64,000 nt of DNA from Mobula hypostoma (taxonomy: Eukaryota): assembly GCF_963921235.1 (NCBI RefSeq), contig NC_086108.1, positions 51,586,001 through 51,650,000 on the forward strand. The letters are read 5' to 3'. Below the pieces are notes generated by a model. That model ran no database searches, was not told the origin of the DNA, and saw only the letters and a list, made by a program, of their open reading frames with translations. Below are positions 6,001 through 53,130 of this stretch, piece after piece. Each line of letters starts with the position of its first letter. Position 1 is the stretch's first letter. A program made the position numbers and the translations under genes.

Positions 6001-9000
6001 CTCTACCACACACAGGTTTCCCTCCGAGTCACATGGGAACTCTACCACACACAGGTTTCCCTCCAAGATCTGCAGTCACATGGGAACTCTACCACTCACA
6101 GGTTTCCCTCCGAGTCACATGGGAACTCTATCAAACACAGGTTTCCCTCCGAGTCACGTGGGAACTCTACTACACACAGGTTTCCCTCCGAGTCACATGG
6201 GAACTCTACCACACACAGGTTTCCCTCCGAGTCACATGGGAACTCTACCACACACAGGTTTCCCTCCGAGTCACGTGGGAACTCTACCACACTCAGATTT
6301 CCCTCCGAGTCACATGGGAACTGTATCAGACACAGGTTTTCCTCCGAGTCACATGGGAACTCTACCTCACACAGGTTTCCCTAAAAGATCTGCAGTCACA
6401 TGGGAACTCTACCACTCACAGGTTTCCCTCCGAGTCACATGGGAACTCTACCACTCACAGGTTTCCCTCCGAGTCACATGGGAACTCTATCAAACACAGG
6501 TTTTCCTCCGACTCACGTGGCAACTCTACTACACACAGGTTTCCCTCCGAGTCACGTGGGAACTCTACCACACACAGGTTTCCCTCCGAGTCACATGGGA
6601 ACTCTACCACACACAGGTTTCCCTCCGAGTCACATGGAAACTCTACCACACACAGGTTTCCCTCCGAGTCACATGTGAACTCTACCACAAACAGGTTTCC
6701 CACGAAGGACTGAGGCACATGGGAACTCTACCACACACAAGTTTTCCTCCAAGTCACATGGGAACAATACCACACACAGGTTATCCTCCGAGTCACATGG
6801 GAACTCGACCGCACACAGGTTTCCCTCCGAGGGACGTGGGAACTCTACCACACACAGGTTTCCCTCCGAGTCACGTGGGAACTCTACCACACACAGGTTT
6901 CCCTCCGAGTCACATGGGAACTCTACCACACACAGGTTTCCCTCCAAGGACTGCAGGCATATGGGAATTCTACCACACATAGGTTTCTCTCCCACTCACA
7001 TGGGAAGTCTACCACACAAAGGTTTCCCTACGAGTCACGTGGGAAATCTACCACACACAGGTTTCCGTCCGAGTCACATGGCAACTCTACCACACACAGT
7101 TTTCCCTCCGAGTCACGTGGGAACTCTACCACACACAGGTTTCCCTCCGAGTCACGTGGGAACTCTACCACACACAGGTTTCCCTCCAAGGACTGCAGGC
7201 ACATGGGAACTCTACCACACACAGGTTTCCCTCCGAGTCACATGGGAACTCTACCACACACAGGTTTCCCTCCGAGTCACGTGGGAACTCTACCACACAC
7301 AGGTTTCCCTCCGAGTCACTGGGAACTCTACCACACACAGGTTTCCCTCCGAGGCACATGGGATCTACCACACACAGGTTTCCCTCCGGTCATGTGGGAA
7401 CTCTACCACACACAGGTTTCCCTCCGAGTCACGTGGGAACTCTACCACACACAGGTTTCCCTCCGAGTCACATGGGAACTCTACCACACACAGGTTTCCC
7501 TCCAAGGACTGCAGGCACATGGGAACTCTACCACACACAGGTTTCCCTCCGAGTCACATGGGAACTCTACCACACACAGGTTTCCCTCCGAGTCACGTGG
7601 GAACTCTACCACACACAGGTTTCCCTCCGAGTCACATGGGAACTCTACCACACACAGGTTTCCCTCCGAGTCACGTGGGAACTCTACCACACACAGGTTT
7701 CCCTCCGAGTCACTGGGAACTCTACCACACACAGGTTTCCCTCCGAGTCACATGGGAACTCTACCACACACAGGTTTCCCTCCGAGTCAGTGGGAACTCT
7801 ACCACACACAGGTTTCCCTCCGAGTCACGTGGGAACTCTACCACACACAGGTTTCCCTCCAGAGTCACATGGGAACTCTACCACACACAGGTTTCCCTCC
7901 GAGTCACATGGGAACTCTACCACACACAGGTTTCCCTCCGAGTCAAGTGGGAACTCTACCACACACAGGTTTCCCTCCGAGTCACGTGGGAACTCTACCA
8001 ACACACAGGTTTCCCTCCGAGTCACATGGGAACTCTACCACACACAGGTTTCCCTCCGAGTCACGTGGGAACTCTACCACACACAGGTTTCCCTCCGAGT
8101 CACGTGGGAACTCTACCACACACAGGTTTCCCTCCGAGTCACATGGGAACTCTACCACACACAGGTTTCCCTCCAAGGACTGCAGGCACATGGGAACTCT
8201 ACCACACACAGGTTTTCCTCCGAGTCACATGGGAACTCTACCACACACAGGTTTCCCTCCGAGTCACATGGGAACTCTACCACACACAGGTTTCCCTCCG
8301 AGTCACGTGGGAACTCTACCACACACAGGTTTCCCTCCGAGTCACATGGGAACTCTACCACACACAGGTTTCCCTCCGAGTCACGTGGGAACTCTACCAC
8401 ACACAGGTTTCCCTCCGAGGCACATGGGAACTCTACCACACACAGGTTTCCCTCCAAGGACTGCAGGCACATGGGAACTCTACCACACACAGGTTTCCCT
8501 CCGAGTCACATGGGAACTCTACCACACACAGGTTTCCCTCCGAGTCACGTGGGGACTCTACCACACACAGGTATCCCTCCAGGTGACATGGTAACTCTAC
8601 TACACACAGGTTTCCCTCCGAGTCACATGGGAACTCTACCACACACAGGTTTCCCTCCGAGTCACATGGGAACTCTACCACACACAGGTTTCCCTCCGAG
8701 TCACATGGGAACTCTACCACACACAGGTTTCCCTCCAAGGACTGCAGGCACATGGGAACTCTACCACACACAGGTTTCCCTCCGAGTCACATGGGAACTC
8801 TACCACACACAGGTTTCCCTCCGAGTCACGTGGGAACTCTACCACACACAGGTTTCCCTCCGAGTCACATGGGAACTCTACCACACACAGGTTTCCCTCC
8901 GAGTCACGTGGGAACTCTACCACACACAGGTTTCCCTCCGAGTCACATGGGAACTCTACCACACACAGGTTTCCCTCCGAGTCACATGGGAACTCTACCA

Positions 9001-12000
9001 CACACAGGTTTCCCTCCGAGTCAGTGGGAACTCTACCACACACAGGTTTCCCTCCGAGTCACGTGGGACTCTACCACACACAGGTTTCCCTCCGAGTCAC
9101 ATGGGAACTCTACCACACACAGGTTTCCCTCCGAGTCACATGGGAACTCTACCACACACAGGTTTCCCTCCGAGTCAAGTGGGAACTCTACCACACACAG
9201 GTTTCCCTCCGAGTCACGTGGGAACTCTACCACACACAGGTTTCCCTCCGAGTCACATGGGAACTCTACCACACACAGGTTTCCCTCCGAGTCACGTGGG
9301 AACTCTACCACACACAGGTTTCCCTCCGAGTCACGTGGGAACTCTACCACACACAGGTTTCCCTCCGAGTCACATGGGAACTCTACCACACACAGGTTTC
9401 CCTCCAAGGACTGCAGGCACATGGGAACTCTACCACACACAGGTTTCCCTCCGAGTCACATGGGAACTCTACCACACACAGGTTTCCCTCCGAGTCACAT
9501 GGGAACTCTACCACACACAGGTTTCCCTCCGAGTCACGTGGGAACTCTACCACACACAGGTTTCCCTCCGAGTCACATGGGAACTCTACCACACACAGGT
9601 TTCCCTCCGAGTCACATGGGAACTCTACCACACACAGGTTTCCCTCCAAGACTGCAGTCACATGGGAACTCTACCACCACAGGTTTCCCTCCGAGTCACA
9701 TGGGAACTCTACCACACACAGGTTTTCCTCCGACTCACGTGGGAACTCTACCACACACAGGTTTCCCTCCGAGTCACGTGGGAACTCTACCACACACAGG
9801 TTTCCCTCCGAGTCACGTGGGAACTCTACCACACACAGGTTTCCCTCCGAGTCACATGGGAACTCTACCACACACAGGTTTCCCTCCGAGTCACATGGGA
9901 ACTCTACCACACACAGGTTTCCCTCCGAGTAACGGCAGGCACATGGGAACTCTACCACACACAGGTTTCCCTCCGAGTCACATGGGAACTCTACCACACA
10001 CAGGTTTCCCTCCGAGTCACATGGGAACTCTACCACACACAGGTTTCCCTCCGAGTCACATGGGAACTCTACCACACACAGGTTTCCCTCCGAGTCACGT
10101 GGGAACTCTACCACACACAGGTTTCCCTCCGAGTCACATGGGAACTCTACCACACACAGGTTTCCCTCCAAGGACTGCAGGCACATGGGAATTCTACCAC
10201 ACATAGGTTTCTCTCCCACTCACATGGGAACTCTACCACACACAGGTTTCCCTCCGAGTCACGTGGGAACTCTACCACACACAGGTTTCCCTCCGAGTCA
10301 CGTGGGAACTCTACCAAACACAGGTTTCCCTCCGAGTCACATGGGAACTCTACCACACACAGGTTTCCCTCCGAGTCACGTGGGAACTCTACCACACACA
10401 GGTTTCCCTCCAAGGACTGCAGGCACATGGGAACTCTACCACACACAGGTTTTCCTCCGAGTCACATGGGAACTCTACCACACACAGGTTTCCCTCCGAG
10501 TCACATGGGAACTCTACCACACACAGGTTTCCCTCCGAGTCACGTGGGAACTCTACCACACACAGGTTTCCCTCCGAGTCACATGGGAACTCTACCACAC
10601 ACAGGTTTCCCTCCGAGTCACATGGGAACTCTACCACACACAGGTTTCCCTCCGAGTCACGTGGGAACTCTACCTCACACAGGTTTCCCTTCGAGTCACA
10701 TGGGAACTCTACCACACACTGGTTTCCCTCCAAGGACTGCAGGCACATGGGAACTCTACCACACACAGGTTTCCCTCCGAGTCACATGGGAACTCTACCA
10801 CACACAGGTTTCCCTCCGAGTCACGTGGGAACTCTACCACACACAGGTTTCCCTCCGAGTCACATGGGAACTCTACCACACACAGGTTTCCCTCCGAGTC
10901 ACGTGGGAACTCTACCACACACAGGTTTCCCTCCGAGTCACGTGGGAACTCTACCAAACACAGGTTTCCCTCCGAGTCACATGGGAACTCTACCACACAC
11001 AGGTTTCCCTCCGAGTCACGTGGGAACTCTACCACACACAGGTTTCCCTCCGAGTCACATGGGAACTCAACCACACACAGGTTTCCCTCCGAGTCACGTG
11101 GGAACTCTACCACACACAGGTTTCCCTCCGAGTCACATGGGAACTCTACCACACACAGGTTTCCCTCCGAGTCACATGGGAACTCTACCACACACAGGTT
11201 TCCCTCCGAGGCACATGGGAACTCTACCACACACAGGTTTCCCTCCAAGGACTGCAGGCACATGGGAACTCTACCACACACAGGTTTCCCTCCCAGTCAC
11301 ATGGGAACTCTACCACACACAGGTTTCCCTCCGAGTCACGTGGGAACTCTACCACACACAGGTTTCCCTCCGAGTCACATGGGAACTCTACCACACACAG
11401 GTTTCCCTCCGAGTCACGTGGGAACTCTACCACACACAGGTTTCCCTCCGAGTCACGTGGGAACTCTACCACACACAGGTTTCCCTCCGAGTCACATGGG
11501 AACTCTACCACACACAGGTTTCCCTCCGAGTCACATGGGAACTCTACCACACACAGGTTTCCCTCCGAGTCACATGGGAACTCTACCACACACAGGTTTC
11601 CCTCCAAGGACTGCAGGCACATGGGAACTCTACCACACACAGGTTTCCCTCCGAGTCACATGGGAACTCTACCACACACAGGTTTCCCTCCGAGTCACAT
11701 GGGAACTCTACCACACACAGGTTTCCCTCCGAGTCACATGGGAACTCTACCACACACAGGTTTCCCTCCGAGTCACGTGGGAACTCTACCACACACAGGT
11801 TTCCCTCCGAGTCACATGGGAACTCTACCACACACAGGTTTCCCTCCAAGGACTGCAGGCACATGGGAATTCTACCACACACAGGTTTCTCTCCCACTCA
11901 CATGGGAACTCTACCACACACAGGTTTCCCTCCGAGTCACGTGGGAACTCTACCACACACAGGTTTCCCTCCGAGTCACATGGGAACTCTACCACACACA

Positions 12001-15000
12001 GGTTTCCCTCCGAGTCACGTGGGAACTCTACCACACACAGGTTTCCCTCCGAGTCACGTGGGAACTCTACCACACACAGGTTTCCCTCCGAGTCACATGG
12101 GAACTCTACCACACACAGGTTTCCCTCCGAGTCACATGGGAACTCTACCACACACAGGTTTCCCTCCGAGTCACATGGGAACTCTACCACACACAGGTTT
12201 CCCTCCGAGTCACATGGGAACTCTACCACACACAGGTTTCCCTCCGAGTCACATGGGAACTCTACCACACACAGGTTTCCCTCCGAGTCAGTGGGAACTC
12301 TACCACACACAGGTTTCCCTCCGAGTCACATGGGAACTCTACCACACACAGGTTTCCCTCCGAGTCACATGGGAACTCTACCACACACAGGTTTCCCTCC
12401 AAGGACTGCAGGCACATGGGAACTCTACCACACACAGGTTTCTCTCCCAGTCACATGGGAACTCTACCACACACAGGTTTCCCTCCGAGTCACGTGGGAA
12501 CTCTACCACACACAGGTTTCCCTCCGAGTCACATGGGAACTCTACCACACACAGGTTTCCCTCCGAGTCACGTGGGAACTCTACCACACACAGGTTTCCC
12601 TCCGAGTACGGGAACCTACACACACAGGTTTCCCTCCGAGTCACATGGGAACTCTACCACACACAGGTTTCCCTCCGAGTCATGTGGGAACTCTACCACA
12701 CACAGGTTTCCCTCCGAGTCACGTGGGAACTCTACCACACACAGGTTTCCCTCCGAGTCACATGGGAACTCTACCACACACAGGTTTCCCTCCGAGTCAC
12801 ATGGGAACTCTACCACACACAGGTTTCCCTCCGAGTCACATGGGAACTCTACCACACACAGGTTTCCCTCCGAGTCACGTGGGAACTCTACCACACACAG
12901 GTTTCCCTCCGAGTCACATGGGAACTCTACCACACACAGGTTTCCCTCCGAGTCACGTGGGAACTCTACCACACACAGGTTTCCCTCCGAGTCACGTGGG
13001 AACTCTACCACACACAGGTTTCCCTCCGAGTCACATGGGAACTCTACCACACACAGGTTTCCCCAAGGACTGCAGGCACATGGGAACTCTACCACACACA
13101 GGTTTCCCTCCGAGTCACATGGGAACTCTACCACACACAGGTTTCCCTCCGAGTCACATGGGAACTCTACCACACACAGGTTTCCCTCCGAGTCACGTGG
13201 GAACTCTACCAAACACAGGTTTCCCTCCGAGTCACATGGGAACTCTACCACACACAGGTTTCCCTCCGAGTCACGTGGGAACTCTACCACACACAGGTTT
13301 CCCTCCAAGGACTGCAGGCACATGGGAACTCTACCACACACAGGTTTCCCTCCAAGGACTGCAGGCACATGGGAACTCTACCACACACAGGTTTCCCTCC
13401 GAGTCAGTGGGAACTCTACCACACACAGGTTTCCCTCCGAGTCACGTGGGAACTCTACCACACACAGGTTTCCCTCCGAGTCACATGGGAACTCTACCAC
13501 ACACAGGTTTCCCTCCGAGTCACATGGGAACTCTACCACACACAGGTTTCCCTCCGAGTCACATGGGAACTCTACCACACACAGGTTTCCCTCCGAGTCA
13601 CATGGGAACTCTACCACACACAGGTTTCCCTCCAAGGACTGCAGGCACATGGGAACTCTACCACACACAGGTTTCTCTCCGAGTCACATGGGAACTCTAC
13701 CACACACAGGTTTCCCTCCGAGTCACGTGGGAACTCTACCACACACAGGTTTCCCTCCGAGTCACATGGGAACTCTACCACACACAGGTTTCCCTCCGAG
13801 TCACGTGGGAACTCTACCACACACAGGTTTCCCTCCGAGTCACATGGGAACTCTACCACACACAGGTTTCCCTCCGAGTCACATGGGAACTCTACCACAC
13901 ACAGGTTTCCCTTCGAGTCACATGGGAACTCTACCACACACAGGTTTCCCTCCGAGTCACGTGGGAACTCTACCACACACAGGTTTCCCTCCGGTCACAT
14001 GGGAACTCTACAACACAGGTTTCCCTCCGAGTCACATGGGAACTCTACCACACACAGGTTTCCCTCCGAGTCACATGGGAACTCTACCACACACAGGTTT
14101 CCCTCCAAGTCACGTGGGAACTCTACCAAACACAGGTTTCCTTCCGAGTCACATGGGAACTCTACCACACACAGGTTTCCCTCCGAGTCACGTGGGAACT
14201 CTACCACACACATGTCTCCCTCCGAGTCACGTGGGAACTCTACCACACACAGGTTTCCCTCCGAGTCACATGGGAACTCTACCACACACAGGTTTCCCTC
14301 CAAGGACTGCAGGCACATGGGAACTCTACCACACACAGGTTTTCCTCCGAGTCACATGGGAACTCTACCACACACAGGTTTCCCTCCGAGTCACATGGGA
14401 ACTCTACCACACACAGGTTTCCCTCCGAGTCACGTGGGAACTCTACCACACACAGGTTTCCCTCCGAGTCACATGGGAACTCTACCACACACAGGTTTCC
14501 CTCCGAGTCACATGGGAACTCTACCACACACAGGTTTCCCTCCAAGGACTGCAGACACATGGGAACTCTACCACACACAGGTTTCCCTCCGAGTCACATG
14601 GGAACTCTACCACACACAGGTTTCCCTCCGAGTCACATGGGAACTCTACCACACACAGGTTTCCCTCCGAGTCACGTGGGAACTCTACCACACACAGGTT
14701 TCCCTCCGAGTCACGTGGGAACTCTACCACACACAGGTTTCCCTCCGAGTCACATGGGAACTCTACCACACACAGGTTTCCCTCCGAGTCACATGGGAAC
14801 TCTACCACACACAGGTTTCCCTCCGGCAGGCACATGGGAACTCTACCACACACAGGTTTCCCTCCGAGTCACATGGGAACTCTACCACACACAGGTTTCC
14901 CTCCGAGTCACATGGGAACTCTACCACACACAGGTTTCCCTCCGAGTCACATGGGAACTCTACCACACACAGGTTTCCCTCCGAGTCACGTGGGAACTCT

Positions 15001-18000
15001 ACCACACACAGGTTTCCCTCCAAGGACTGCAGGCACATGGCAACTCTACCACACACAGGTTTCCCTCCAAGGACTGCAGGCACATGGGAATTCTACCACA
15101 CATAGGTTTCTCTCCCACTCACATGGGAACTCTACCACACACAGGTTTCCCTCCGAGTCACGTGGGAACTCTACCACACACAGGTTTCCCTCCGAGTCAC
15201 ATGGGAACTCTACCACACACAGGTTTCCCTCCGAGTCACATGGGAACTCTACCACACACAGGTTTCCCTCCGAGTCACGTGGGAACTCTACCACACACAG
15301 GTTTCCCTCCGAGTCACATGGGAACTCTACCACACACAGGTTTCCCTCCGAGTCACATGGGAACTCTACCACACACAGGTTTCCCTCCGAGTCACGTGGG
15401 AACTCTACCACACACAGGTTTCCCTCCGAGTCACATGGGAACTCTACCACACACAGGTTTCCCTCCGAGTCACATGGGAACTCTACCACACACAGGTTTC
15501 CCTCCGAGTCACATGGGAACTCTACCACACACAGGTTTCCCTCCGAGTCACGTGGGAACTCTACCACACACAGGTTTCCCTCCGAGTCACATGGGAACTC
15601 TACCACACACAGGTTTCCCTCCAAGGACTGCAGGCACATGGGAACTCTACCACACACAGGTTTCCCTCCGAGTCACATGGGAACTCTACCACACACAGGT
15701 TTCCCTCCGAGTCACGTGGGAACTCTACCAAACACAGGTTTCCCTCCGAGTCACATGGGAACTCTACCACACACAGGTTTCCCTCCGAGTCACGTGGGAA
15801 CTCTACCACACACAGGTTTCCCTCCGAGTCACATGGGAACTCTACCACACACAGGTTTCCCTCCGAGTCACATGGGAACTCTACCACACACAGGTTTCCC
15901 TCCGAGTCACGTGGGAACTCTACCACACACAGGTTTCCCTCCGAGTCACGTGGGAACTCTACCACACACAGGTTTCCCTCCGAGTCACATGGGAACTCTA
16001 CCACACACAGGTTTCCCTCCAAGGACTGCAGGCACATGGGAACTCTACCACACACAGGTTTCCCTCCGAGTCACATGGGAACTCTACCACACACAGGTTT
16101 CCCTCCGAGTCACGTGGGAACTCTACCACACACAGGTTTCCCTCCGAGTCACGTGGGAACTCTACCACACACAGGTTTCCCTCCGAGTCACATGGGAACT
16201 CTACCACACACAGGTTTCCCTCCGAGTCACGTGGGAACTCTACCACACACAGGTTTCCCTCCGAGTCACATGGGAACTCTACCACACACAGGTTTCCCTC
16301 CAAGGACTGCAGGCACATGGGAACTCTACCACACACAGGTTTCTCTCCCAGTCACATGGGAACTCTACCACACACAGGTTTCCCTCCGAGTCACGTGGGA
16401 ACTCTACCACACACAAGTTTTCCTCCGAGTCACATGGGAACTCTACCACACACAGGTTTCCCTCCGAGTCACATGGGAACTCTACCACACACAGGTTTCC
16501 CTCCGAGTCACGTGGGAACTCTACCACACACAGGTTTCCCTCCGAGTCACATGGGAACTCTACCACACACAGGTTTCCCTCCGAGTCACATGGGAACTCT
16601 ACCACACACAGGTTTCCCTCCGAGTCACATGGGAACTCTACCACACACAGGTTTCCCTCCGAGTCACATGGGAACTCTACCACACACAGGTTTCCCTCCG
16701 AGTCACATGGGAACTCTACCACACACAGGTTTCCCTCCAAGGACTGCAGGCACATGGGAACTCTACCACACACAGGTTTCCCTCCGAGTCACATGGGAAC
16801 TCTACCACACACAGGTTTCCCTCCGAGTCACGTGGGAACTCTACCACACACAGGTTTCCCTCCGAGTCACATGGGAACTCTACCACACACAGGTTTCCCT
16901 CCGAGTCACGTGGGAACTCTACCACACACAGGTTTCCCTCCGAGTCACGTGGGAACTCTACCACACACAGGTTTCCCTCCGAGTCACATGGGAACTCTAC
17001 CACACACAGGTTTCCCTCCGAGTCACATGGGAACTCTACCACACACAGGTTTCCCTCCAAGATCTGCAGTCACATGGGAACTCTACCACTCACAGGTTTC
17101 CCTCCGAGTCACATGGGAACTCTATCAAACACAGGTTTTCCTCCGAGTCACGTGGGAACTCTACCACACACAGGTTTCCCTCCGAGTCACGTGGGAACTC
17201 TACCACACACAGGTTTCCCTCCGAGTCACGTGGGAACTCTACCACACACAGGTTTCCCTCCGAGTCACATGGGAACTCTACCACACACAGGTTTCCCTCC
17301 GAGTCACATGGGAACTCTACCACACACAGGTTTCCCTCCGAGTCACATGGGAACTCTACCACACACAGGTTTCCCTCCAAGGACTGCAGGCACATGGGAA
17401 CTCTACCACACACAGGTTTCCCTCCGAGTCACATGGGAACTCTACCACACACAGGTTTCCCTCCGAGTCACATGGGAACTCTACCACACACAGGTTTCCC
17501 TCCGAGTCACATGGGAACTCTACCACACACAGGTTTCCCTCCGAGTCACGTGGGAACTCTACCACACACAGGTTTCCCTCCAAGGACTGCAGGCACATGG
17601 GAACTCTACCACACACAGGTTTCCCTCCAAGGACTGCAGGCACATGGGAACTCTACCACACACAGGTTTCCCTCCGAGTCACATGGGAACTCTACCACAC
17701 ACAGGTTTCCCTCCGAGTCACGTGGGAACTCTACCACACACAGGTTTCCCTCCAAGGACTGCAGGCACATGGGAACTCTACCACACACAGGTTTCCCTCC
17801 AAGGACTGCAGGCACATGGGAACTCTACCACACACAGGTTTTCCTCCGAGTCACATGGGAACTCTACCACACACAGGTTTCCCTCCGAGTCACGTGGGAA
17901 CTCTACCAAACACAGGTTTCCCTCCGAGTCACATGGGAACTCTACCACACACAGGTTTCCCTCCGAGTCACGTGGGAACTCTACCACACACAGGTTTCCC

Positions 18001-21000
18001 TCCGAGTCACGTGGGAACTCTACCACACACAGGTTTCCCTCCGAGTCACATGGGAACTCTACCACACACAGGTTTCCCTCCGAGTCACATGGGAACTCTA
18101 CCACACACAGGTTTCCCTCCGAGTCACGTGGGAACTCTACCACACACAGGTTTCCCTCCGAGTCACGTGGGAACTCTACCACACACAGGTTTCCCTCCGA
18201 GTCACATGGGAACTCTACCACACACAGGTTTCCCTCCGAGTCACATGGGAACTCTACCACACACAGGTTTCCCTCCGAGTCACGTGGGAACTCTACCACA
18301 CACAGGTTTCCCTCCGAGTCACATGGGAACTCTACCACACACAGGTTTCCCTCCGAGTCACATGGGAACTCTACCACACACAGGTTTCCCTCCGAGTCAC
18401 ATGGGAACTCTACCACACACAGGTTTCCCTCCGAGTCACATGGGAACTCTACCACACACAGGTTTCCCTCCAAGGACTGCAGGCACATGGGAACTCTACC
18501 ACACACAGGTTTCCCTCCGAGTCACGTGGGAACTCTACCACACACAGGTTTCCCTCCGAGTCACATGGGAACTCTACCACACACAGGTTTCCCTCCGAGT
18601 CACGTGGGAACTCTACCACACACAGGTTTCCCTCCGAGTCACATGGGAACTCTACCGCACACAGGTTTCCCTCCGAGTCACATGGGAACTCTACCACACA
18701 CAGGTTTCCCTCCGAGTCACGTGGGAACTCTACCACACACAGGTTTCCCTCCGAGTCACGTGGGAACTCTACCACACACAGGTTTCCCTCCGAGTCACAT
18801 GGGAACTCTACCACACACAGGTTTCCCTCCGAGTCACATGGGAACTCTACCACACACAGGTTTCCCTCCAAGGACTGCAGGCACATGGGAACTCTACCAC
18901 ACACAGGTTTCCCTCCGAGTCACATGGGAACTCTACCACACACAGGTTTCCCTCCGAGTCACATGGGAACTCTACCACACACAGGTTTCCCTCCGAGTCA
19001 CATGGGAACTCTACCACACACAGGTTTCCCTCCGAGTCACGTGGGAACTCTACCAAACACAGGTTTCCCTCCATTTCACGTGGGAACTCTACCAAACACA
19101 GGATTCCCTCCGAGTCACATGGGAACTCTACCACACACAGGTTTCCCTCCGAGTCACATGGGAACTCTACCACACACAGGTTTCCCTCCGAGTTACATGG
19201 GAACTCTATCACACACAGGTTTCCCTCCGAGTCAAGTGGGAACTCTACCACACACAGGTTTCCCTCCGAGTCACATGGGAACTCTACCACACACAGGTTT
19301 CCCTCCGAGTCACATGGGAACTCTACCACACACAGGTTTCCCTCCAAGGACTGCAGGCACATGGGAACTCTACCACACACAGGTTTCCCTCCGAGTCACA
19401 TGGGAACTCTACCACACACAGGTTTCCCTCCGAGTCACATGGGAACTCTACCACACACAGGTTTCCCTCCGAGTCACATGGGAACTCTACCACACACAGG
19501 TTTCCCTCCGAGTCACGTGGGAACTCTACCACACACAGGTTTCCCTCCGAGTCACATGGGAACTCTACCACACACAGGTTTCCCTCCGAGTCACGTGGGA
19601 ACTCTACCACACACAGGTTTCCCTCCGAGTCACATGGGAACTCTACCACACACAGGTTTCCCTCCGAGTCACATGGGAACTCTACCACACACAGGTTTCC
19701 CTCCGAGTCACATGGGAACTCTACCACACACAGGTTTCCCTCCGAGTCACATGGGAACTCTACCACACACAGGTTTCCCTCCGAGTCACGTGGGAACTCT
19801 ACCACACACAGGTTTCCCTCCGAGTCACATGGGAACTCTACCACACACAGGTTTCCCTCCGAGTCACATGGGAACTCTACCACACACAGGTTTCCCTCCA
19901 AGGACTGCAGGCACATGGGAACTCTACCACACACAGGTTTCCCTCCGAGTCACGTGGGAACTCTACCACACACAGGTTTCCCTCCGAGTCACGTGGGAAC
20001 TCTACCACACACAGGTTTCCCTCCAAGGACTGCAGGCACATGGGAACTCTACCACACACAGGTTTCCCTCCGAGTCACGTGGGAACTCTACCACACACAG
20101 GTTTCCCTCCGAGTCACGTGGGAACTCTACCACACACAGGTTTCCCTCCGAGTCACGTGGGAACTCTACCACACACAGGTTTCCCTGCAAGGACTGCAGA
20201 CACATGGGAACTCTACCACACACAGGTTTCCCTCCGAGTCACGTGGGAACTCTACCACACACAGGTTTCCCTCCGAGTCACATGGGAACTCTACCACACA
20301 CAGGTTTCCCTCCAAGGACTGCAGGCACATGGGAACTCTACCACACACAGGTTTCCCTCCGAGTCACATGGGAACTCTACCACACACAGGTTTCCCTCCG
20401 AGTCACATGGGAACTCTACCACACACAGGTTTCCCTCCAAGGACTGCAGGCACATGGGAACTCTACCACACACAGGTTTCCCTCCGAGTCACATGGGAAC
20501 TCTACCACACACAGGTTTCCCTCCGAGTCACATGGGAACTCTACCACACACAGGTTTCCCTCCGAGTCACATGGGAACTCTACCACACACAGGTTTCCCT
20601 CCGAGTCACATGGGAACTCTACCACACACAGGTTTCCCTCCGAGTCACATGGGAACTCTACCACACACAGGTTTCCCTCCGAGTCACATGGGAACTCTAC
20701 CACACACAGGTTTCCCTCCGAGTCACATGGGAACTCTACCACACACAGGTTTCCCTCCAAGGACTGCAGGCACATGGGAACTCTACCACACACAGGTTTC
20801 CCTCCGAGTCACATGGGAACTCTACCACACACAGGTTTCCCTCCAAAGGCACATGGGAACTCTACCACACACAGGTTTCCCTCCGAGTCACATGGGAACT
20901 CTACCACACACAGGTTTCCCTCCAAGGACTGCAGGCACATGGGAACTCTACCACACACAGGTTTCCCTCCGAGTCACATGGGAACTCTACCACACACAGG

Positions 21001-21870
21001 TTTCCCTCCGAGTCACATGGGAACTCTACCACACACAGGTTTCCCTCCAAGGACTGCAGGCACATGGGAACTCTACCACACACAGGTTTCCCTCCGAGTC
21101 ACATGGGAACTCTACCACACACAGGTTTCCCTCCGAGTCACGTGGGAACTCTACCACACACAGGTTTCCCTCCAAGGACTGCAGGCACATGGGAACTCTA
21201 CCACACACAGGTTTCCCTCCGAGTCACGTGGGAACTCTACCACACACAGGTTTCCCTCCGAGTCACATGGGAACTCTACCACACACAGGTTTCCCTCCGA
21301 GTCACATGGGAACTCTACCACACACAGGTTTCCCTCCGAGTCACATGGGAACTCTACCACACACAGGTTTCCCTCCGAGTCACGTGGGAACTCTACCACA
21401 CACAGGTTTCCCTCCAAGGACTGCAGGCACATGGGAACTCTACCACACACAGGTTTCCCTCCGAGTCACATGGGAACTCTACCACACACAGGTTTCTCTC
21501 TCAGTCACATGGGAACTCTTCCACACACAGGTTTCCCTCCGAGTCACGTGGGAACTCTACCACGCACAGGTTTCCCTCCGAGTCACATGGGATCTCTACC
21601 GCACACAGGTTTCCCTCCGAGTCACATGGGAAGTCTACCGCACACAGGTTTCCCTCCAAGTCACGTGGGAACTCTACCACACACAGGTTTCCCTCCGAGT
21701 CACGTGGGAACTCTACCACACACAGGTTTCCCTCCGGGTCATGTGGGAACTCTACCACACACAGGTTTCCCTCTGAGTCACATGGGAACTCTACCACACA
21801 CAGGTTTCCCTCCAAGGACTGCAGGCACATGGGAACTCTACCACACACAGGTTTCTCTCCCTGTCACATG
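1..21870 (+). repeat. Large minisatellite/satellite array: 39-bp unit CAC(A/G)TGGGAACTCTACCACACACAGGTTTCCCTCCGAGT plus 47-bp variant ending ...CCTCCAAGGACTGCAGG; continues beyond the window's left edge
   Basis: Tandem periodicity is directly visible; about 540 units estimated from length; the ORF track shows 13-aa periodic peptides in three + frames and one - frame. Confidence 0.99.
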
Positions 21871-22539
21871 CCGTCCTCAGTTGGATTTACACTCGGTGCT
21901 GAGATTTCTCCTTGACTGCTCACTTTCTCCTGCATATATTCCCTCTCTTGGTCCTTGCCTCAGTCCACTTCCTTCAAGGTGACCTAGAATTGAAAAATTA
22001 ATGACAAGTTTAAGAACTGTTGAGGCTACAATGCCCCCACCTCCACTTTTTGATAAAAGTAACATATTTCCTATCGGGAAAGAAAAGATTGTATTGCAAG
22101 TTAAATATCATACTGTGACTAAATTTGGTATTATGTTTATTTATGTTTTAGTTGAACTCCACAAGATATTTATTTTATTCAATATATTTCTGAGAACTCC
22201 CCATCTTCTATCAAATCTCTCCATACCTCTGACATACAACTTGCTCTGACCTCCACTTCTCTAAGTATGACTATGTCCCTCAAATTACCTCACTTGGGTG
22301 TGTTAAAACAAGATAAAGACTTGAAGAAAAAGGAGATTGTAAACTGGAGTGACTAAAGTAAGGAATTCCAAATTATTTATGTAATGGTAGTGAATGGGGG
22401 TGTCTGTAACTCATAAAGGTATGCTCAAGGGTTTTAGCCATGGATGTGTCAGGGTAGGGTAGGGCAAATCATCAACAAAGTCAATTTATGTTACAACTTC
22501 AGGATATTTCACAAACTCATCAGATAAAAATTGACATTA

Positions 22540-44154: not shown

Positions 44155-46820
44155 TGAGAGGTAGTGGGAGAGGTTCCGGAGGATTGGATGATTGCAAATG
44201 TTGTTCTCTTATTCAAGAAATGGAGTAGAGACAGCCCAGGAAATTATAGACCAGTAAGTCTTACTTCAATGGTTGGTAAGTTGATGGAGAAGATCCTGAG
44301 AGACAGGATTTATGAACATTTGGAGAGACATAATATGATTAGGAATAGTCAACATGGCTTTGTCTAAGGTAGGTCATGCCTTACGAGCCTGATTGAATTT
44401 TTTGAGGTTGTGACTAAACACATTGATGAAGGTAGAGCAGTAGATGTAGTGTATATGGATTTCAGCAAGGCATTTGATCATGTACCGCATGGTTTATTCA
44501 GAAAGTAAGGAGGCATGGGATCCAAGGAGACTTTGATTTCTAGATCTAGTATTGGCTTGCCCACAGAAGGCAAAGAGTGGTTGTAGACAGATCATATTCT
44601 GCATGGAGGTCGGTGATCAGTGGTGTGTTTCAGGGATCTGTTAAGGGACTCAGGGATGAGTTAATAAATTTGCTGATGACACAAAGGTTGGGGGTGTTGT
44701 GGATAGTGTGGGCTGTCAGAGGTTACAGTGGGACATCGATGGAATGCAAAACTGGGCTGAGAAGTGGCAGATGGAGTTCAACCAAAATAAGTGTGAGGTG
44801 GTTCATTTTGGTAGATCAAATATGATGGCAGAATATAGTATTAATGGTAAGACTCTTGGCAGTGTGGTGATATAAGTGGGGGGGGGGGCGCTGGGAGCGG
44901 ACCCAAATGCAAGACACAGACACTGAAGTACTAGGAACAGGACTTGACTAGAGAGCGGGGACAAGAACTCAGACTTGGGCTAGGATATCGGCTAGGCAAG
45001 CAGGACCAGGACAAGGAACTGGGAACTAGGAGCCTGGGTTTGAACTCTGAGCTGAAGACTGGACAAGGACCCAGAGTCTTGACTTGGACTCGGACCCGGA
45101 ACTAGGTGAGGACAGGGCTCGAGTACTTCGAAGCCTTGACTTGGACAGGACGAGGTTCTTGGACGTGGCTAGGACAGCACAAGGTTATAGGTCAGAATGA
45201 GAGACTCCTGGGCAGGATGAGGGAACTCCAGTACAGGACGAAGCACATGGACAGGGCAAGGCACATGGTGAGGACGAGAACATGAAGCCTTGAATTGGTA
45301 CTCAGGAACAGCTGAGACTTGGACTTGGGACAGCAGAAACCTTGGAACCTTGGACTCGGGACGACAGGAACACAGAACACAGAGCCTTGGTCTTGGGGAG
45401 GACAGGAACACAGAGCCTTGGTCTAGAGCACGGGAACATGGAGTCTTGGACTTGAGAGACAGGAACACAGGGATATGGAACACAGAGCCAGGACCCCTCC
45501 TTGGGAACAGGACTTAGGGCCGGGACTTGTACACGGAACACAGAGCCAGGACCCCTCCTTGGGAACAGGACTTGGGACCGGGGCCCTACACAGAAAGCTG
45601 AACATGACGGGACGGTTCCCAACACTAGGTAGCGGCAAACGCCCAGACCTACCTAGCGAAGGCATGAACACAGAGACAGTTCCAACTCAACGATATACAG
45701 TTCCTTATCTTGACACAGCAAGGCTCCGGTCTCGCTCCTGTGGTAGAACTTAACAAGGTTGCAGGGCAAGGCTCCAGAAGGAAGAGGAAGGGAAGGGAAC
45801 AGTCCAGCCTCAGGGTAACAGCAAAGACAGCCTGGCTTACCCAACGGAGGCAAGGACAGGAAGGGACAGATCCAACCGCAGGGTAATGGCAAAGACAGCC
45901 TGACTTACCTCACAAAGACAAGGACAGAATACTGACAAGACGAATCAGCCACCACACTCAAACCCAGGGCCACTCAGATTCCCAGCCCCAAGACGAGCAT
46001 CAGGTGCCTATGATTAAACCCAACTGAAACAAGGGACAGCCGGAAGATCCGGAGTCCGGAATCCATGGACCGGACCACGAACTGGAACGTGGACTTTGTG
46101 GACTGGACCATGACATGTGGAGAATCAGAAGGATTTTGGGGTCCAAGTCCATAGGACACTCAAAGCTGCTGCGCAGGTTGACTGTGTGGCTAAGAAGGCG
46201 TATGGTATATTGGCCTTCATCAACCATGGGATTTAGGTCAAGAGCTGAGAGGTAATGTTACAGCTATATCAGACCCTGAGTACTGTGCTCAGTTCTTCTC
46301 ACTTCACCACAGGAAAGATGTGGAAGCTATAAAAAGGATGCAGAGGAGATTTACAAGGATGTTGCCTGGATTGGGGAGCATGCCTTATGAGAATAGGTTG
46401 AGTGAACTTGGCCTTTTCTCCTTGGAGTGACGGAGGATGAGAGGTGACCTGGTAGAAGTGTATAAGATGATGAGAGTTGATCATGTGGATAGTCAGAGGC
46501 TTTTTCCCAGGGCTGAAATGGCTAACACAAGAAGGCACAGTTTTAAGGTGCTTGGAAGTAGGTACAGAGGAGATGTCAGGGGTAAGTTTTTTATGCGGAA
46601 GGTGGTGAGTGTGTGGAATGGGCAGCCGGCAACGGTGGTAGAGGTGGATACAATAGGGTCTTTTATGAGAAACTTGGATAGATAGCTACATGGAGCTGAG
46701 AAAAATAGAGGGTTATGGGTAACCCTAGGTCATTTCTAAAGTAAGTACATGTTCGGCACAGTATTGTAGGCTGAAGGGCCCGTATTGTGCTGTAGGTTTT
46801 CTATGTTTTAAGTTTCTGTG
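44155..46820 (+). mobile_element. CR1 LINE RT-to-3' end, split by a solo LTR
   Basis: GEVPEDWMIANVVLLFKK...PGNYRPVSLTS...QHGF; MRGDLVEVYKMM...TRRHSFKV; CR1 tail at 46770-46820; contiguous across TSD TGTGG. Confidence 0.88.
44868..46115 (-). mobile_element. Solo LTR (probably Gypsy-type) with internal tandem repeats
   Basis: TG...CA termini; 5-bp TSD TGTGG (44863-44867, 46116-46120); shares TGTCATGGTCC start, AGGAGGGGTCC repeats and TTGCATTTGGGTCC 3' motif with 49201-50644. Confidence 0.8.
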
Positions 46821-47010
46821 TTTCAAATGAAACTAGGTTGGTCAGCATGGACAAGTTGGGCTGAAGAGCTTGTTTCTTCGCTGTTTGACTCTATGTACCA
46901 AAAATGGTCCATGAAATTTGCAGCCTTATATCCAATGCAGAAATAATTGTTTGGAAGGAAAAGAGAACATTTCAATTTATTAGTATACGTATTTAGTATA
47001 TAGGGTGGAT

Positions 47011-47196
47011 AGGGTGTCAGAGCGGGGTAGCACCTCTGGTGGGGGAACATGTCACATCCTTTTCAAGGCAGTTTGTCCACCTTTGGTCCCCACTCAGCTC
47101 TCAGCTCTCACCTGTGGCTCCTCATAGCTGTTTGCATGCGACAGCGGCCACACCCCGGGCAACGGCTTCGACAAGCCAACTAAACCAGGTGAGGGT
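47011..47196 (+). ncRNA. HDV-like self-cleaving ribozyme candidate
   Basis: P1 GGGTGT(47012-17):ACACCC(47150-55); P2 CTCACCTGT(47107-15) with AC(C)AGGTGAG(47184-93); P3 GGC(47116-18):GCC(47147-49); L3 starts TCCTC; GGGCAAC follows P1; P4 GGCTT-CGAC-AAGCC; J4/2 CTAA with C47180 at the catalytic position. Confidence 0.65.
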
Positions 47197-47518
47197 AGCC
47201 GACGGGTCTCAAACCCTCGGTGAGATAGGGAGTTGTCTATCCCAGCATGTGAAGACAGACTCCGGCGGATTGAGCGGATGAGACCAATGGAAGGTCCAAC
47301 GGTCAAGAAGGCGGTCTCTGCAAGCATCGTGGAACGTGTAGAGCACAACAAGACACAGAAGACCTCCTGGTCATCCACTGCGCCTAGTCCCATCTCCAGC
47401 CATCTAGACTCTGTCTTGCCACTGGATCCAGATGGGAATTGGGAAGAGAGAGTGAGGCCGACGCTGCGCAACTCTCCCTCACTTAAATCCAAATTACGTG
47501 CTAGTCTCAACACTATCA
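47011..47518 (+). mobile_element. Short non-autonomous RTE-like element (structured 5'UTR plus 3' tail)
   Basis: GC-rich block with an abrupt 5' boundary; HDV-like fold at its 5' end, as known for RTE 5'UTRs; 3' end CCCTCACTTAAATCC...GCTAGTC resembles recalled RTE tails. Family assignment is inference. Confidence 0.55.
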
Positions 47519-47520
47519 AA

Positions 47521-47659
47521 AGCTGGCTGGCGGCATAGTGGCATCAGCACTGGACTTTGGGGCAAGAGGTCCCCAGTTCGAATCCGGCCAGCTCCCTTTC
47601 ACGCTCTCCATCCGTGCTGGGTTGAGCGTCGAGCTAGCAACCCGATCTCGTAAAAAAAA
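47521..47659 (+). mobile_element. tRNA-derived SINE
   Basis: Acceptor-like stem AGCTGGC:GCCAGCT, A-box-like TGGCGGCATAGTGG, B box GTTCGAATCC (47576-47585), short body and A-tail. Confidence 0.65.
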
Positions 47660-48291
47660 GTACTAATGGTGTTGAGGTCTTCACTGGATGAACTGTATCT
47701 GCATTTACATAAAAGTCTAGTGTAACTGTGGTAACATCTTTTAGAAGTTACAATATCAATCCAATGAATGCAATTGCATTCAGGAAATACGCATTTCTTG
47801 AGTTTTCTTTGGATTGAGTTAATAGAAAAAGTATTAAGGAAACAAATTCTACAACAATGTCTTTAGGCACTGCCAATGTTCTAGGGACGGCCTTGGAAAG
47901 AATGAATTGTTGGAACTTGGTGATCTGTCATTTTTTATATAAAAAGGGAAAATGTTATTTTAAATGTTGTCCCTTCTTTAAACTATATATACATATCCAA
48001 TAATAGAACCATGTTTTCCTTATTGCCTGGGAATATACGGTACATGCATTTATAACATGCATTTGTTCATACATCCTTTGGAATCGAAGAAAATTGAAGC
48101 GATTCCTCTGGGTCTATTCACTGAAATGAGTTCTATTCATGGCTATAGATAAAATTCTACAAATTCAGTGTAAATAGCCTCAAAGGTGTCAATTGTTGAA
48201 GTTGGATGAGCACATCATGTTTATCAGAAATACACTCTTTGTCACTTTGAAGATGGGAGATTGAAGAAATTAATATAGTGGCATTAGTTAC

Positions 48292-48841
48292 TGTTAGAGT
48301 AGATTTCTTTTTGGGTAGATGATTTGGTTACGCTTAAATGACTTTGGCCACCAGACTTCTATTTTAACTGTTTGACAAAGGACTGTGGATTGAGTCCACC
48401 ACAATGGGCTTCCTAAAAGGTATACCAGATGCTTCTGGTGCCTGATGCTGTAGTTTCGAAGACAGTATTATCTATACATTTTAAATATTAATTATCTTCT
48501 ATGTTAGCACGTAAAATGCCCAATAGATGTATTGTGGATTGAACTAAAGGCTGTGGATACCAACCCAGACATGTTGGCGTCAGAAGGAAAGGATGAAATC
48601 TGAAGGTGTGATGTTTGTATGTAACTTCAAAAGGAAGCATTGTCTATGCATTGACTGTAACTTTTTAAGTAGCGACTGCCTTTGTGTTTAGCATATAAAT
48701 ATCGAGCCCACATTGAGCTAACAGACCTTTCTGTGGAAAGCGTCTCCGTCGGTAGATGCCTGCTTGTTGTGTCGAATAAAGAAGCTGCTTTGTATCTACC
48801 AGTGACTCTATCTCTCCGGTAATTTCATCCACGCTACAACA
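48292..48841 (+). repeat. 5' LTR
   Basis: About 95% identical to 59800-60354; TATAAA near 48695 and AATAAA at 48775. Confidence 0.95.
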
Positions 48842-48843
48842 TT

Positions 48844-48861
48844 TGGTATCAGGAGTGGGAT
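48844..48861 (+). promoter_or_regulatory. Primer-binding site, tRNA-Leu(CAG)
   Basis: TGGTATCAGGAGTGGGAT, 2 nt after the LTR; 17/18 match to the complement of the vertebrate tRNA-Leu(CAG) 3' end (TGGTGTCAGGAGTGGGAT, recalled). Confidence 0.85.
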
Positions 48862-49200
48862 ACTTTCCTGACCCGTCGTGTGGCCAGCGTTCCTAGCAGT
48901 TTTAAGTTGGTGAGTATTTTTCTAAAATAACACTCACACTTGAATCTGTTCGGTCGGTGATGCACGGATCACGAGGTACACGAATGTGGAGAGCCGAACT
49001 GGTAGATATTAGTGTGTGCATGTGTGTTCATGTAAGTGAGGAATCTTTGCATGTTAACTTGGTGAGAGTTGGACCACCTGTTGCGAAAGGTGGTAACCCA
49101 CGGTACGGTTCGAGACGCCAGCTTAGGGGCGTGTATACTCGTTCGGGGAGTTGCATTTTAGTGTATGCGTGTGCAGGTGTGATGCAAGAGAATACAGTAG

Positions 49201-50644
49201 TGTCATGGTCCGGATCGGGGTCCCTTTAAATTTAGCTTGTTTATGTTACGATCTGGATCGTTGATTCCCTGTTTTCCCATGTCCCTCGACTTTGGTGATT
49301 AGAGGCAATTAACACTCGGCTGAACCGGTAGTTTATAGTCTCCAGCTTTCAGACGTTCGGTGCGGGAGCATCTGTAAAGTCATCAAATGTACGGTGTGCC
49401 GATGTCATCTGGCTGGAGCAAGCCTAGTCCCTGCCGAAGCGAGTGCCGGTAATTCGCCTTTCCTCACCGGAGCAACCTTGTTAAGTTACCTCACCAGAGC
49501 GAGCCTGCAAAGTTTCCTCACCGAGGTGGGTCTGTCAGTTAACCCGCCGGAGGGAATCAAGAACCACTGTCTACTGTTCCTGGGCCGAGTCGAGAGCTCA
49601 CCACTACCTGGAGGCTCCAAGGCAAGTCCTGGCCCTGGTGGCATTCTAGAACCAAGTCAAGTCCTGGGCCTGGCGGCATTCTAGCACCAAGTCAATTCCT
49701 GGGCCTGGCGGCATTCTAGCACCAAGTCAAGTCCTGGGCCTGGTGGCTTCCCAGTTCTGAGTCAAGTCCTGGCCCTGGTGGTCTGTGATTCCTGTTCTAC
49801 CCCCTTGTCTGAATCCGTTCTCTGCCCCCTTGCCTCTAGCCCTTGTCTGCAGCCCCTGCCTGCACTTTGGTCTAGTTCCATCACTGGAGCTAGATAGGTA
49901 CTGTCTGGTGTTCATTTGTTTTGGTCTTGTCTTGTTTTGTCCTCGCCTCTGTGGGGTAAGTCAGGCCGTCTTGCTGTTGTTCCGCGGGGGTCATGTCTTG
50001 TCTGGTCCTTGCCTCTGTGGGGGTAAGTCTGGCTGTCTTGCTGTTGCCCTGTGGGGAGTCATGTCTTGTCTTGTCCTGTCCTCTGTGGGGTAAGTCAGGC
50101 TGTCTTGCTGTTGCCCTGTGGAGGGTCATGAGTCCTGGCCCTATGTCCTGTACCCAAGGAGGGGTCCCAGCTCTCTGTTCTGTGTGTGAGTCCCAACCCT
50201 ATGTCCTGTACCCAAGGAGGGGTCCCAACTCTGTGCTCTGTGTATGTGTCTATGGTTCCATGTCCCTGCTCTCCTGAGACCGAGGCTCTGTTTTCCATGT
50301 TCCTCCTCTCCCTAGCCCATGTCATGTCCATGCCTGGTTCTGGGGTCTGAGCCCGAGGCAAGACCCAGGTACTGGGTCCTTGCCCAGTCTCGGCTGGGAG
50401 TCCATACCCTAGCCTCTTCATGTCTCCTCTAGTTCTGGGAGCCGATTCCAATTCCAAGTCCAAGCCCAGACCCTTGATACCAGCCTAGTCGTAGTCCTCA
50501 GACCTGAAGTAGACCTTCAGTTCGCTATTCCTACTCCTGCCTCGCTCTCCTGGTTTCGAACAATAAACTAAATTTAAGTAACCTCACTAGATGTGCCTTG
50601 CATTTGGGTCCACCCTTGCTCCCTATGCCCCTGCCATTGTGATA
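49201..50644 (+). mobile_element. Solo LTR nested in the provirus leader
   Basis: TGTCATGG...TTGTGATA termini; 5-bp TSD AGTAG (49196-49200, 50645-50649); AATAAA near 50562; internal tandem repeats; related to 44868-46115. Confidence 0.85.
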
Positions 50645-50815: not shown

Positions 50816-53130
50816 GGCACCTACTGAGGTCAGGGAACGTCAGGTTGAGAACCCTGATGATCTGAGCTAGCCCTTGACATTAATTATGACTATTCATAAG
50901 CCCTTCACCCCCGGGGAGAAACAAAGCATCTTGTCTGCGTTGCCCTCACTTAAAGTCGCCTGTGGGAATTCAGAATTCTGGTGCAAACTCGAGGAAATAG
51001 CTGAAGTTCACCAGATGCACCCTAAAGATATACATGTGTTAGTGAAAGCAAAGTGCCCGAGGAATATGTGGGATAGAATGGCCCGGGGGGTGCGGGATGG
51101 TACATGGGCAACTACTGGGAGCACCAGTAATGAAGAAAGATATCGCTCTTTTAAAGGGGAAGTGAGGCAGCGGCTGGGGGGAGGAGAGTAGCTCGGGAAT
51201 GATAATGGCAGTGATTCAAAAAGCTAACGAGACAGACATGGATTACGCAGAACGTAAATACCGAGTGTATGAGGAGTATTCAGGGTTGGATAATCCAGGG
51301 AGGGACGACCCAGTCTTCCTAAAAATGCTGAAGGAAGGCCTGAGCTCAGCCCACCAAGAAGTTTTAGATTTAGGCATAACGGTAGGGTCCAACTACTCTG
51401 AGATAGTTTCATGGGTCAGTGAGATAGACCAAAGAGAAGGCAAGAGAAATCGTAAAGTGGGTATAGTGGATGCAGCTGCTGTGATGTCTCGGAGGGCTTG
51501 CTTTGCTTGCCAACAGCCAGGGCACTTTGCAAAGGCCTGCCGGACCAGGTATAAGGCAGTGAAGGAGCTGATATGCTACAGCTGTGGCCTATCGGGACAT
51601 GGCTGGAGACAGTGTCCAAACGAGAGGGGGAAAACCCAGGTGAAGGTCACGACAAACACCCAGCCACTCACCCCATTAGCAACCAGTCTGACTGTCGATC
51701 AGATGAAAGAGTTAGTGACAGCGCCTCTTACGGCAGAAAAGGATGTGGCAGCGGGCTGCACGGGCTGCTCTGATGACTCACGGATGTACATTACGGCATG
51801 GTTAGGGGGACGGCAATGCAATATGTTAGTGGACACAGGGACATTGGTATCGATAACAGACTCACCCTTACCAACAACAGGACAAGCCAGTTACATCGGG
51901 GTGTAGGAGGGAAAACAGTAAAAGCAGAAAGAAGCGAGAAGCAAATACTAGAAATCGGGGGAGTACAGCTTCCAGTGTATTTCTGGGTATGTCCAAATAA
52001 TGAGGGCACGATCCTTGGAATAGACATCCTCAGGGAAGCAGGAGCTGTTATAGATTCGGGAAAGGGAGAAATAATATGGACGAGTCAGGGGCAGCGAACG
52101 CGCACAACCAACAGAATACACGGCCTGGCTAGCATAGGCGCAGCTGCCCCAATCATTAGAGACTGGAGCCAGGATGGTGTCTATGGGTCACCTTGTCAGC
52201 AGTTCCCAGCTGTGTGGACTAGAGACAAGCAAGATTGTGGGCAGGTGAAGATAAACCCAGTTAAAATAGAGGAGGGTCAGTATAAATCCCCTAAGCAGGA
52301 CCCTATAGAAACTGACACACTGACCGCTGTTCAGGGTATAGCGAAGGAACAAAAACACCAGGGGATACTCAGAGACTGCGGCCACTCCAGAACATAAAGT
52401 TTTCCCAGTTCCTCCGAGGGCAGACATTACTGCAAATAAGGAAGCAGGGGAACAAGAGGCAATTGAGATTGCAAGTGTGCAGGAGGAAACGACAGAAGCC
52501 AGCTTAGTAATATTATATGCAGAGGTAGCGACAGAAGAGAAGGAAAAATAGAGGAGAAAAGGAGGGACCAGATGGGTGCTGGACACATGGGGAGGAAGGG
52601 GTCACGGTGGCTCCACCCTGTATTAGACAGATACTACTAAAGTTTTATCATGGGGCAATGCATCAGGGAAGACAGAGCATGATCACAACCCTCCGGCAGG
52701 ACTGGTGGTGGCCTGAGATGGGCAGGGATGTTGAGAAATTCTGCTGCCGTTTATATCATTTGTGCCCAGCACAACCCTGGTAAGGGCAGAAAGCTACAGC
52801 TGGCAAATCAGCCTGGGTGGAGGGGACCCTGGGAAAACATCCAGATAGACTTCACAGGGCCCCTGCCATAAAGCAGGGGGGAAAGTTACTATTAAAGGAC
52901 CAAGTGAAACAACTGCAAATCGCTGATCAGAAAGAGCCAGAGGGAAAGGGGATAGTTCTTCCACAGCCCGGCAACCAAGTTATGGTGAGGGTGCTGCCAG
53001 AAAGGCCTGGGTTTGCCCCCAGGTGGATAGGACCACAGACGGTACTCTTAACCAATGATACGTATGTTTTTGACAGACTCGGCAAGGCAGCCAGTGGAAA
53101 CACTGGACCCAGATTAAAGAATATGACTCA
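50816..53130 (+). pseudogene. Disrupted gag-pro-pol
   Basis: Two CCHC knuckles (CFACQQPGHFAKAC, CYSCGLSGHGWRQC); protease LVDTG...ILGIDIL; pre-RT VWTRDKQDCG; integrase pieces WWPEMGRDV, PWENIQIDFTGPLP and PGNQVMV...PRWIGP; RT core and most of the integrase core are absent. Confidence 0.9.

Follow-up and report, generated by a model that had tools for sequence, protein, structure and literature searches.

HDV-like ribozymes are found at the 5' ends of non-LTR retroelements of the RTE, R2, R4, baggins and L1Tc/Ingi groups (PMC5786205, PMC3774820, PMC6765202), and their role in processing RTE RNA at its 5' end is known. The RTE clade also has bipartite derivatives and, in several families, predicted 5' ribozymes (PMC5786205). 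In the published descriptor L3, which is part of the HDV active site, is held at the seven nucleotides TYYHCGY, and J1/2 spans about 50 nt (PMC4870747). Precedent for active ribozymes that break the descriptor comes from the fungal HDV variants, which differ from the fold described here by the E-loop of their P4, by one more base between P2 and P3 and by a first pair that is C-G, and for which the sections of the report used here mention no L3 hairpin (PMC5640933).

The first 195 nucleotides of the RTE lineage analysed here are a predicted HDV-like self-cleaving ribozyme, a decayed copy of which lies in the window (the whole 64,000-nt stretch of Mobula hypostoma DNA under study). As the retroelement ribozymes are described, it shares with them the position of the first base, the helix order, U20 and G25, the CC:GG pairing of P1.1, a CNRA-type J4/2 and a long J1/2, but differs from them in an L3 of 26-29 nt with a hairpin as compared to 7 nt, in the A often found at position 24, and in a P1 strand that is tandemly doubled in all families. 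[quoted passage not shown] Different from drz-Agam-2-1 however, for which the consulted parts of that account report no L3 insertion, the present fold has one, and its P1.2 has a 5' strand that duplicates the P1 strand. On the level of single letters, J1.1/4, the base of P4 and J4/2 of family A are nearly the same as in HDV-F-prausnitzii (RF02682), which by contrast is bacterial and compact. This was the sole Rfam match of the clean copy L008, and a weak one that skips the L3 region and scores 13.2 bits (E 5.7), where the gathering score is 44. No Rfam HDV-family model matched L008 or the window copy at its gathering score, and a search of window positions 45000-50000 returned six chance matches, none of them a ribozyme, and no HDV model.

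The RTE-type element and its families

Judged by its sequence, the element in the window (47002-47693, forward strand, as are all parts of the element given below) is a copy of a short, non-coding and decayed RTE-type retroelement, whose extent follows from family alignments and from the ends of a coding copy, L043. A search of the 3.48-Gb genome with an exact core pattern gave 2,543 sites as compared to 0 for the reversed control, and the best 30 copies of these 2,543 define an element of about 570 nt, with 520 nt in the 5' part and 50 nt in the tail; two copies (L008 and L021) are 100% identical to the family A consensus. L043 carries the same 5' part, followed by broken APE and RT frames (PF03372 at 21.2 bits, below the cut-off of 24.5, and PF00078) and by the same 3' tail. 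As it thus shares both ends of the short element, the short form arose by internal deletion. In L043 APE and then RT follow directly after the 5' UTR with no separate ORF1, as is expected of the RTE clade. APE lies about 620-650 nt past the core in L099 and L101, and tblastn detected APE similarity downstream of the 5' UTR in three of 16 metagenome homologues. The top named relatives of the RT region carry the label craniofacial development protein 2, which we take to be typical of RTE/BovB-derived proteins; they are entries for lizard, turtle, snake, ray, catfish, tapeworm, shrimp, snail and lancelet.

The build is that of a bipartite non-autonomous element, in which the 5' UTR and the extreme 3' end of an autonomous element are joined and the ORF is deleted. 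Its 5' part (47002-47517), common to the decayed coding copy L043, is the 5' UTR of an APE- and RT-encoding non-LTR element, and its 3' tail (47665-47693) matches the 3' end of L043. RTESINE1/2, Bov-A and RTE-N2_Lch likewise join a 5' UTR to a short 3' end without an ORF, as described in PMC5786205, whereas in the subgroup that includes the window copy an inserted SINE-like module of about 145 nt lies between the two parts (47518-47664). The module occupies the same site in the window copy, L030 and L049, whose flanks differ, which suggests that the copies form a composite subfamily or that the site is a target hot spot. ARAGORN called no tRNA gene within it (47518-47664), and stretches related to it occur elsewhere in L018, L024 and L075. 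The two parts of the short element join at an inverted repeat (window 47502-47517 and 47665-47680), and in L043 too the 5' UTR ends in a sequence complementary to that of the 3' tail (~925-941 and 3830-3850, duplex of -17.8 kcal/mol). The internal deletion may have been templated by such long-range pairing, which may alternatively make a closed loop of the RNA.

Two older families were defined besides family A, namely B from 30 loci and C from 14 short regions and eight seeds. Seven family-C 5' ends are spaced at about 20-40 kb (G000:C5:123956665-124157159), which suggests segmental tandem duplication. Three other family-C copies (L036, L040 and L041) have upstream sequence in common beyond the element boundary and therefore either lie within a larger repeat or form a composite.

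Helix order, core bases and covariation

Position numbers G1, U20, G25 and C75 follow the HDV convention. The initial annotation, made from the window copy alone, had named P2, P3, a 28-nt L3 with a hairpin, P1', the GG of P1.1, P4 and C47180-U-A-A, and each of these was located where it had been placed. J1/2 (47009-47103) is a peripheral domain, the long irregular stem-loop P1.2, whose closing 3' strand (47093-47102) is damaged in this copy. The 5' strand of P2 (47104-47115) is part of a lengthened helix, of about 12 bp in the family, in which 47107-47115 pairs with 47184-47193, and the invariant 5' strand of P3 (47116-47118), which was part of the search patterns, pairs with 47147-47149. L3 as a whole (47119-47146, 28 nt) comprises the core positions 20-27 (47119-47126), with U20, C21, C22 and G25 assigned from a table of 11 lineages and G25 replaced by A at 47124, then the extra hairpin (47127-47145) and a conserved G at 47146. 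The segment 47147-47158 holds the 3' strands of P3 (47147-47149) and P1 (47150-47156) and the GG of P1.1 (47157-47158). It is followed by the P4 stem-loop (47163-47178), the part to which the weak RF02682 alignment of L008 extends, and by the segment 47179-47196, which contains J4/2 with the C75-equivalent C47180 and the 3' strand of P2 (47184-47196) with one bulged C that is absent from the L104/L120 lineage. Directly after P2 a further conserved stem-loop is seen in families A and B (47197-47225, and in the L052 family), with a loop that differs by family.

A pattern scan of metagenomes gave 27 matches, of which 16 were homologous by BLAST. The remaining 11, GC-rich loci without BLAST similarity to the consensuses, were dropped as chance matches, and the single match in a scan of viral contigs, which lies in a coding-looking stretch, was rejected likewise. 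Eleven lineages were compared, these being the three family consensuses and eight metagenome loci, and alignment A2 comprised 30 rows (29 of them distinct), 16 from genome copies and 14 from the homologues, of which L108, cut off at a contig end, and L121, with a deletion over J4/2, were left out.

The proposal that an HDV-like fold lies at the 5' end of an RTE-type element is borne out by these comparisons. The HDV-type helix order, U20, C21, C22 and G25, a C75-type J4/2 and the L3 hairpin are kept in the three families and the 16 metagenome homologues, and both the descriptor scan of the consensuses and the pair counts recover the nested double-pseudoknot order P1, P2, P3, P1.1 and P4. In the families U20 and G25 are placed for the reverse wobble and C21/C22 for pairing with G39/G38. 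P1 of the consensuses (6-7 bp) opens with G1-C, and the first base of the fold matches the element boundary. J4/2 fits the CNRA form with a catalytic-type C, which is present in all 30 rows of A2; the A at its fourth position is invariant too, and none of the genome or metagenome patterns had included either base. Similarly, G25 is kept in families A-C, where the genome core pattern left it unconstrained, although the metagenome pattern fixed it. P2 and P4 covary: six of 21 pairs in A2 change on both sides, two of the five inner pairs counted in P2 and four of six in P4, a number that 29 of 500 shuffles also reach and that comes from related sequences. Overall, 94.7% of the cells in A2 pair, as compared to 89.5 +/- 0.6 in shuffles and 14-43% when the alignment is slid. 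P3, P1.1 and the L3 hairpin are invariant or change on one side only, and P1 shows one two-sided case (L099). Since P3 and the outer hairpin pairs were fixed by the search patterns, their invariance comes partly from selection. In the L096/L119 lineage P4 is much shortened, and the L3 hairpin and the J4/2 C are kept.

Could the fold be a chance pattern in the GC-rich end of a repeat? The relaxed descriptor that matches the window copy (G25 optional, one mismatch in P1) was written after the sequence had been seen, and the 11 discarded metagenome matches and the viral match were chance matches. However, none of 5,000 dinucleotide shuffles of the copy passes, nor does any of 3,000 shuffles of the consensuses, all three of which pass the HDV-type descriptor provided that the L3 hairpin is allowed, and two-sided changes in P2 and P4 recur across lineages. 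Coincidence therefore has next to no credence with us. The relaxed descriptor matched nowhere else on either strand of window positions 22001-64000.

Variants of a second ribozyme class, twister, are reported at the 5' ends of RTE elements such as Perere-3 (PMC8501958, PMC7761336), and the 3' strand of the present fold does resemble the P4-L2-P2-L1 string in Table 1 of PMC8501958. Compared by eye with that table, however, the loop closed by P4 has four nucleotides and is devoid of the twister L4 motif, the 5' strand of P2 pairs straight through with no L1 loop, and the elements begin with the G-rich P1 rather than with the A residues of the twister cleavage site. In addition, no twister model of Rfam matched L008 or the window at E values up to 10. 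We thus rejected a twister variant as very improbable.

The hairpin in L3 and the proposed mechanism

The hairpin had been noticed as an insertion in a single copy, and it proves to be a feature of the family rather than a quirk of that copy. In all 11 lineages L3 measures 26-29 nt and has the same layout, in which a fixed first part of 8 nt (U20, C21, C22, G25 and A27) is followed, after position 27, by a hairpin of 17-20 nt with a stem of 5-7 bp and then by a G. Families B and C keep the hairpin with other loops, and in A2 its variation is limited to wobble and loop-length changes. The 7-nt TYYHCGY form of L3 occurs in none of the 11 lineages, and in six of them position 24 is A where the published descriptor requires C. 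As that descriptor fixes L3 at seven nucleotides, it would miss the hairpin-bearing build, in line with the expectation voiced in the initial annotation. A literature search found no report of an L3 hairpin in HDV-like ribozymes; it did not cover the primary RTE-ribozyme paper, where a prior description is possible.

The hairpin also bears on the main structural rival. RNAalifold recovers P2, the L3 hairpin and P4 unprompted but predicts an extension of P3 to 6 bp that uses two bases of P1' and U20, while the nested minimum-energy fold of consensus A is devoid of the L3 hairpin. The 6-bp P3 is, in these predictions, the main rival fold. A ribozyme-derived but non-cleaving RNA might result, in which the core, remodelled by hairpin and 6-bp P3, becomes an element that binds protein, initiates translation or acts as a promoter, and the start of transcription defines the 5' end. 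The extended P3 draws on invariant bases, in the hairpin stem the sequence is conserved along with the pairing whereas P2 and P4 vary, and position 24 departs from the descriptor in more than half of the lineages; moreover, translation-initiation and protein-binding roles have been proposed for retroelement HDV-like folds (PMC6765202). Such a structure would not readily explain why the J4/2 C and the fourth-position A, absent from all search patterns, are invariant in A2, why G25 is kept in families A-C outside the genome core pattern, and why complementarity of P1 to the exact 5' end is maintained, with one two-sided change. We therefore hold a non-cleaving element to be unlikely, though it is the rival that we take most seriously.

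This leads us to suggest that the intact RNA likely takes up an HDV-like ribozyme fold and cleaves itself 5' of its first G, freeing the element from read-through transcripts; release from read-through host transcripts would fix the element's 5' end. In the proposed mechanism unit 1 of a doubled P1 strand (47002-47008) would form P1, with cleavage 5' of 47002, while unit 2 would be held in P1.2, which together with the short linkers and the 12-bp P2 would pinch P1 and P2 together, an effect that has been measured in drz-Agam-2-1. U20-G25, P1.1 and the C75-type cytosine would then form the usual active site, and the extra hairpin, which follows position 27, would point away from the core. Positions 26-27 face outward in HDV ribozyme structures, and a hairpin inserted behind them would presumably be tolerated, an orientation for which our literature search found no support.

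More tentatively, the fold may represent an overlooked HDV-like subclass, disseminated by one RTE lineage among vertebrates and other animals. Its sequence-conserved L3 hairpin could be a working domain, either for tertiary contacts or docking of an ORF protein or as a switch between an extended-P3 resting fold and the cleaving fold, and the doubled P1 could guard the cut site against 5' fraying. We regard this extension as possible but doubtful. If the RNA cleaves, L3 can carry a whole helix and current descriptors under-count the family; thousands of copies in one vertebrate, together with homologues elsewhere, would be potential transcript cutters; structure work would gain a natural insertion point beside the active site; and it would become possible to test cleanly how the doubling of the P1 strand defines a retroelement's 5' end.

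The P1 register and the state of the window copy

Which of the two units forms P1? Two P1-like units, in tandem and 9 nt apart, open the sequence in all three families and in several distant homologues; here these are unit 1 (47002-47008), at which the family alignments start, and unit 2 with its following bases (47011-47021), of which 47012-47021 is the 5' strand of P1.2 in the family. The initial annotation took unit 2 for P1, put the element boundary at 47011 and predicted cleavage 5' of it. The boundary of the family however is 47002, and 47011 merely opens the second tandem unit; family evidence likewise favours P1 at 47002-47008. Unit 2 is intact at 1,865 family-A sites, and of these 1,735 keep two nucleotides upstream of it, 1,537 keep five and 946 keep all nine, leaving at most 130 sites (7%, ordinary decay included) that lack the first two. 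In families B and C five upstream nucleotides are kept at 238 of 397 sites. If the inner of two duplicated P1 strands were the one cut, the outer would be expected to be lost over subsequent rounds (PMC3774820), and the retention of the upstream bases thus indicates that the template RNA starts at unit 1. Candidate target-site duplications were present at 17 of 30 loci; as only -4 to +6 nt around 47002 were scanned, they are no test of 47011, which the pattern counts do test.

Pairing energies are equal for the two units in the consensuses (-11.8 kcal/mol each with P1') and so leave room for unit 2 as P1, with unit 1 as a spare or decoy. For individual copies the unit-2 register indeed gives more passes (19 of 35 in A, 5 of 30 in B and 2 of 18 in C, versus 9, 5 and 0 in the unit-1 register), which we attribute to fraying of 5' ends; in L106 and L122 only unit 2 is able to pair with P1', and in the window copy it pairs better, with one mismatch versus two. 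Then again, RNAfold of J1/2 from the three consensuses and the metagenome loci predicts unit 2 to be a strand of P1.2, paired in all three consensuses, where opening it would cost 8.0-12.4 kcal/mol (3.2 in the window copy). In addition, the two-sided P1 change of L099 fits unit 1 only (-9.5 versus -3.1 kcal/mol), and L101 and L115 favour unit 1 likewise. We infer that unit 1 forms P1 and that the predicted cut lies just 5' of 47002; the cut site at 47011 is probably wrong, and a ribozyme working in the unit-2 register appears improbable to us.

The window copy itself was suspected to be inactive, and we concur. It differs from its family at 16 of 195 positions, among them the G1, G25 and G73/G74 positions and the partner strand of P1.2, which is weakened by four changes at 47094-47099. 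Unit 1 is decayed at 47002 and 47008, and P1 does not open with a purine-pyrimidine pair. The A residues at the G1 and G25 positions had been recognized before, but that list was incomplete, as A47178/A47179 (G73/G74) and G47008 have to be added. The TCCTC match to genomic HDV is present, as had been pointed out, but is partly accidental, since T47122 is a private change for which the family has C. In a wasp R2 ribozyme cleavage was lost when the conserved G of L3 was changed to A (PMC3774820), and for this reason the window copy is probably dead. It is best described as a decayed, internally deleted derivative that probably does not cleave.

Elsewhere in the window, positions 8-21870 hold an array in which a 39-bp unit is repeated in tandem about 544 times, with 90% matches. 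One of its frames is stop-free for 4,999 codons (6983-21982), and the unit reads as a Ser/Thr/His/Pro-rich 13-mer; the array may be a mucin-like exon or a satellite. By eye, what we take to be an LTR-like stretch followed by a primer-binding-site-like motif lies at about 48620-48860, and broken, presumably gag-like frames lie at about 50870-52400.
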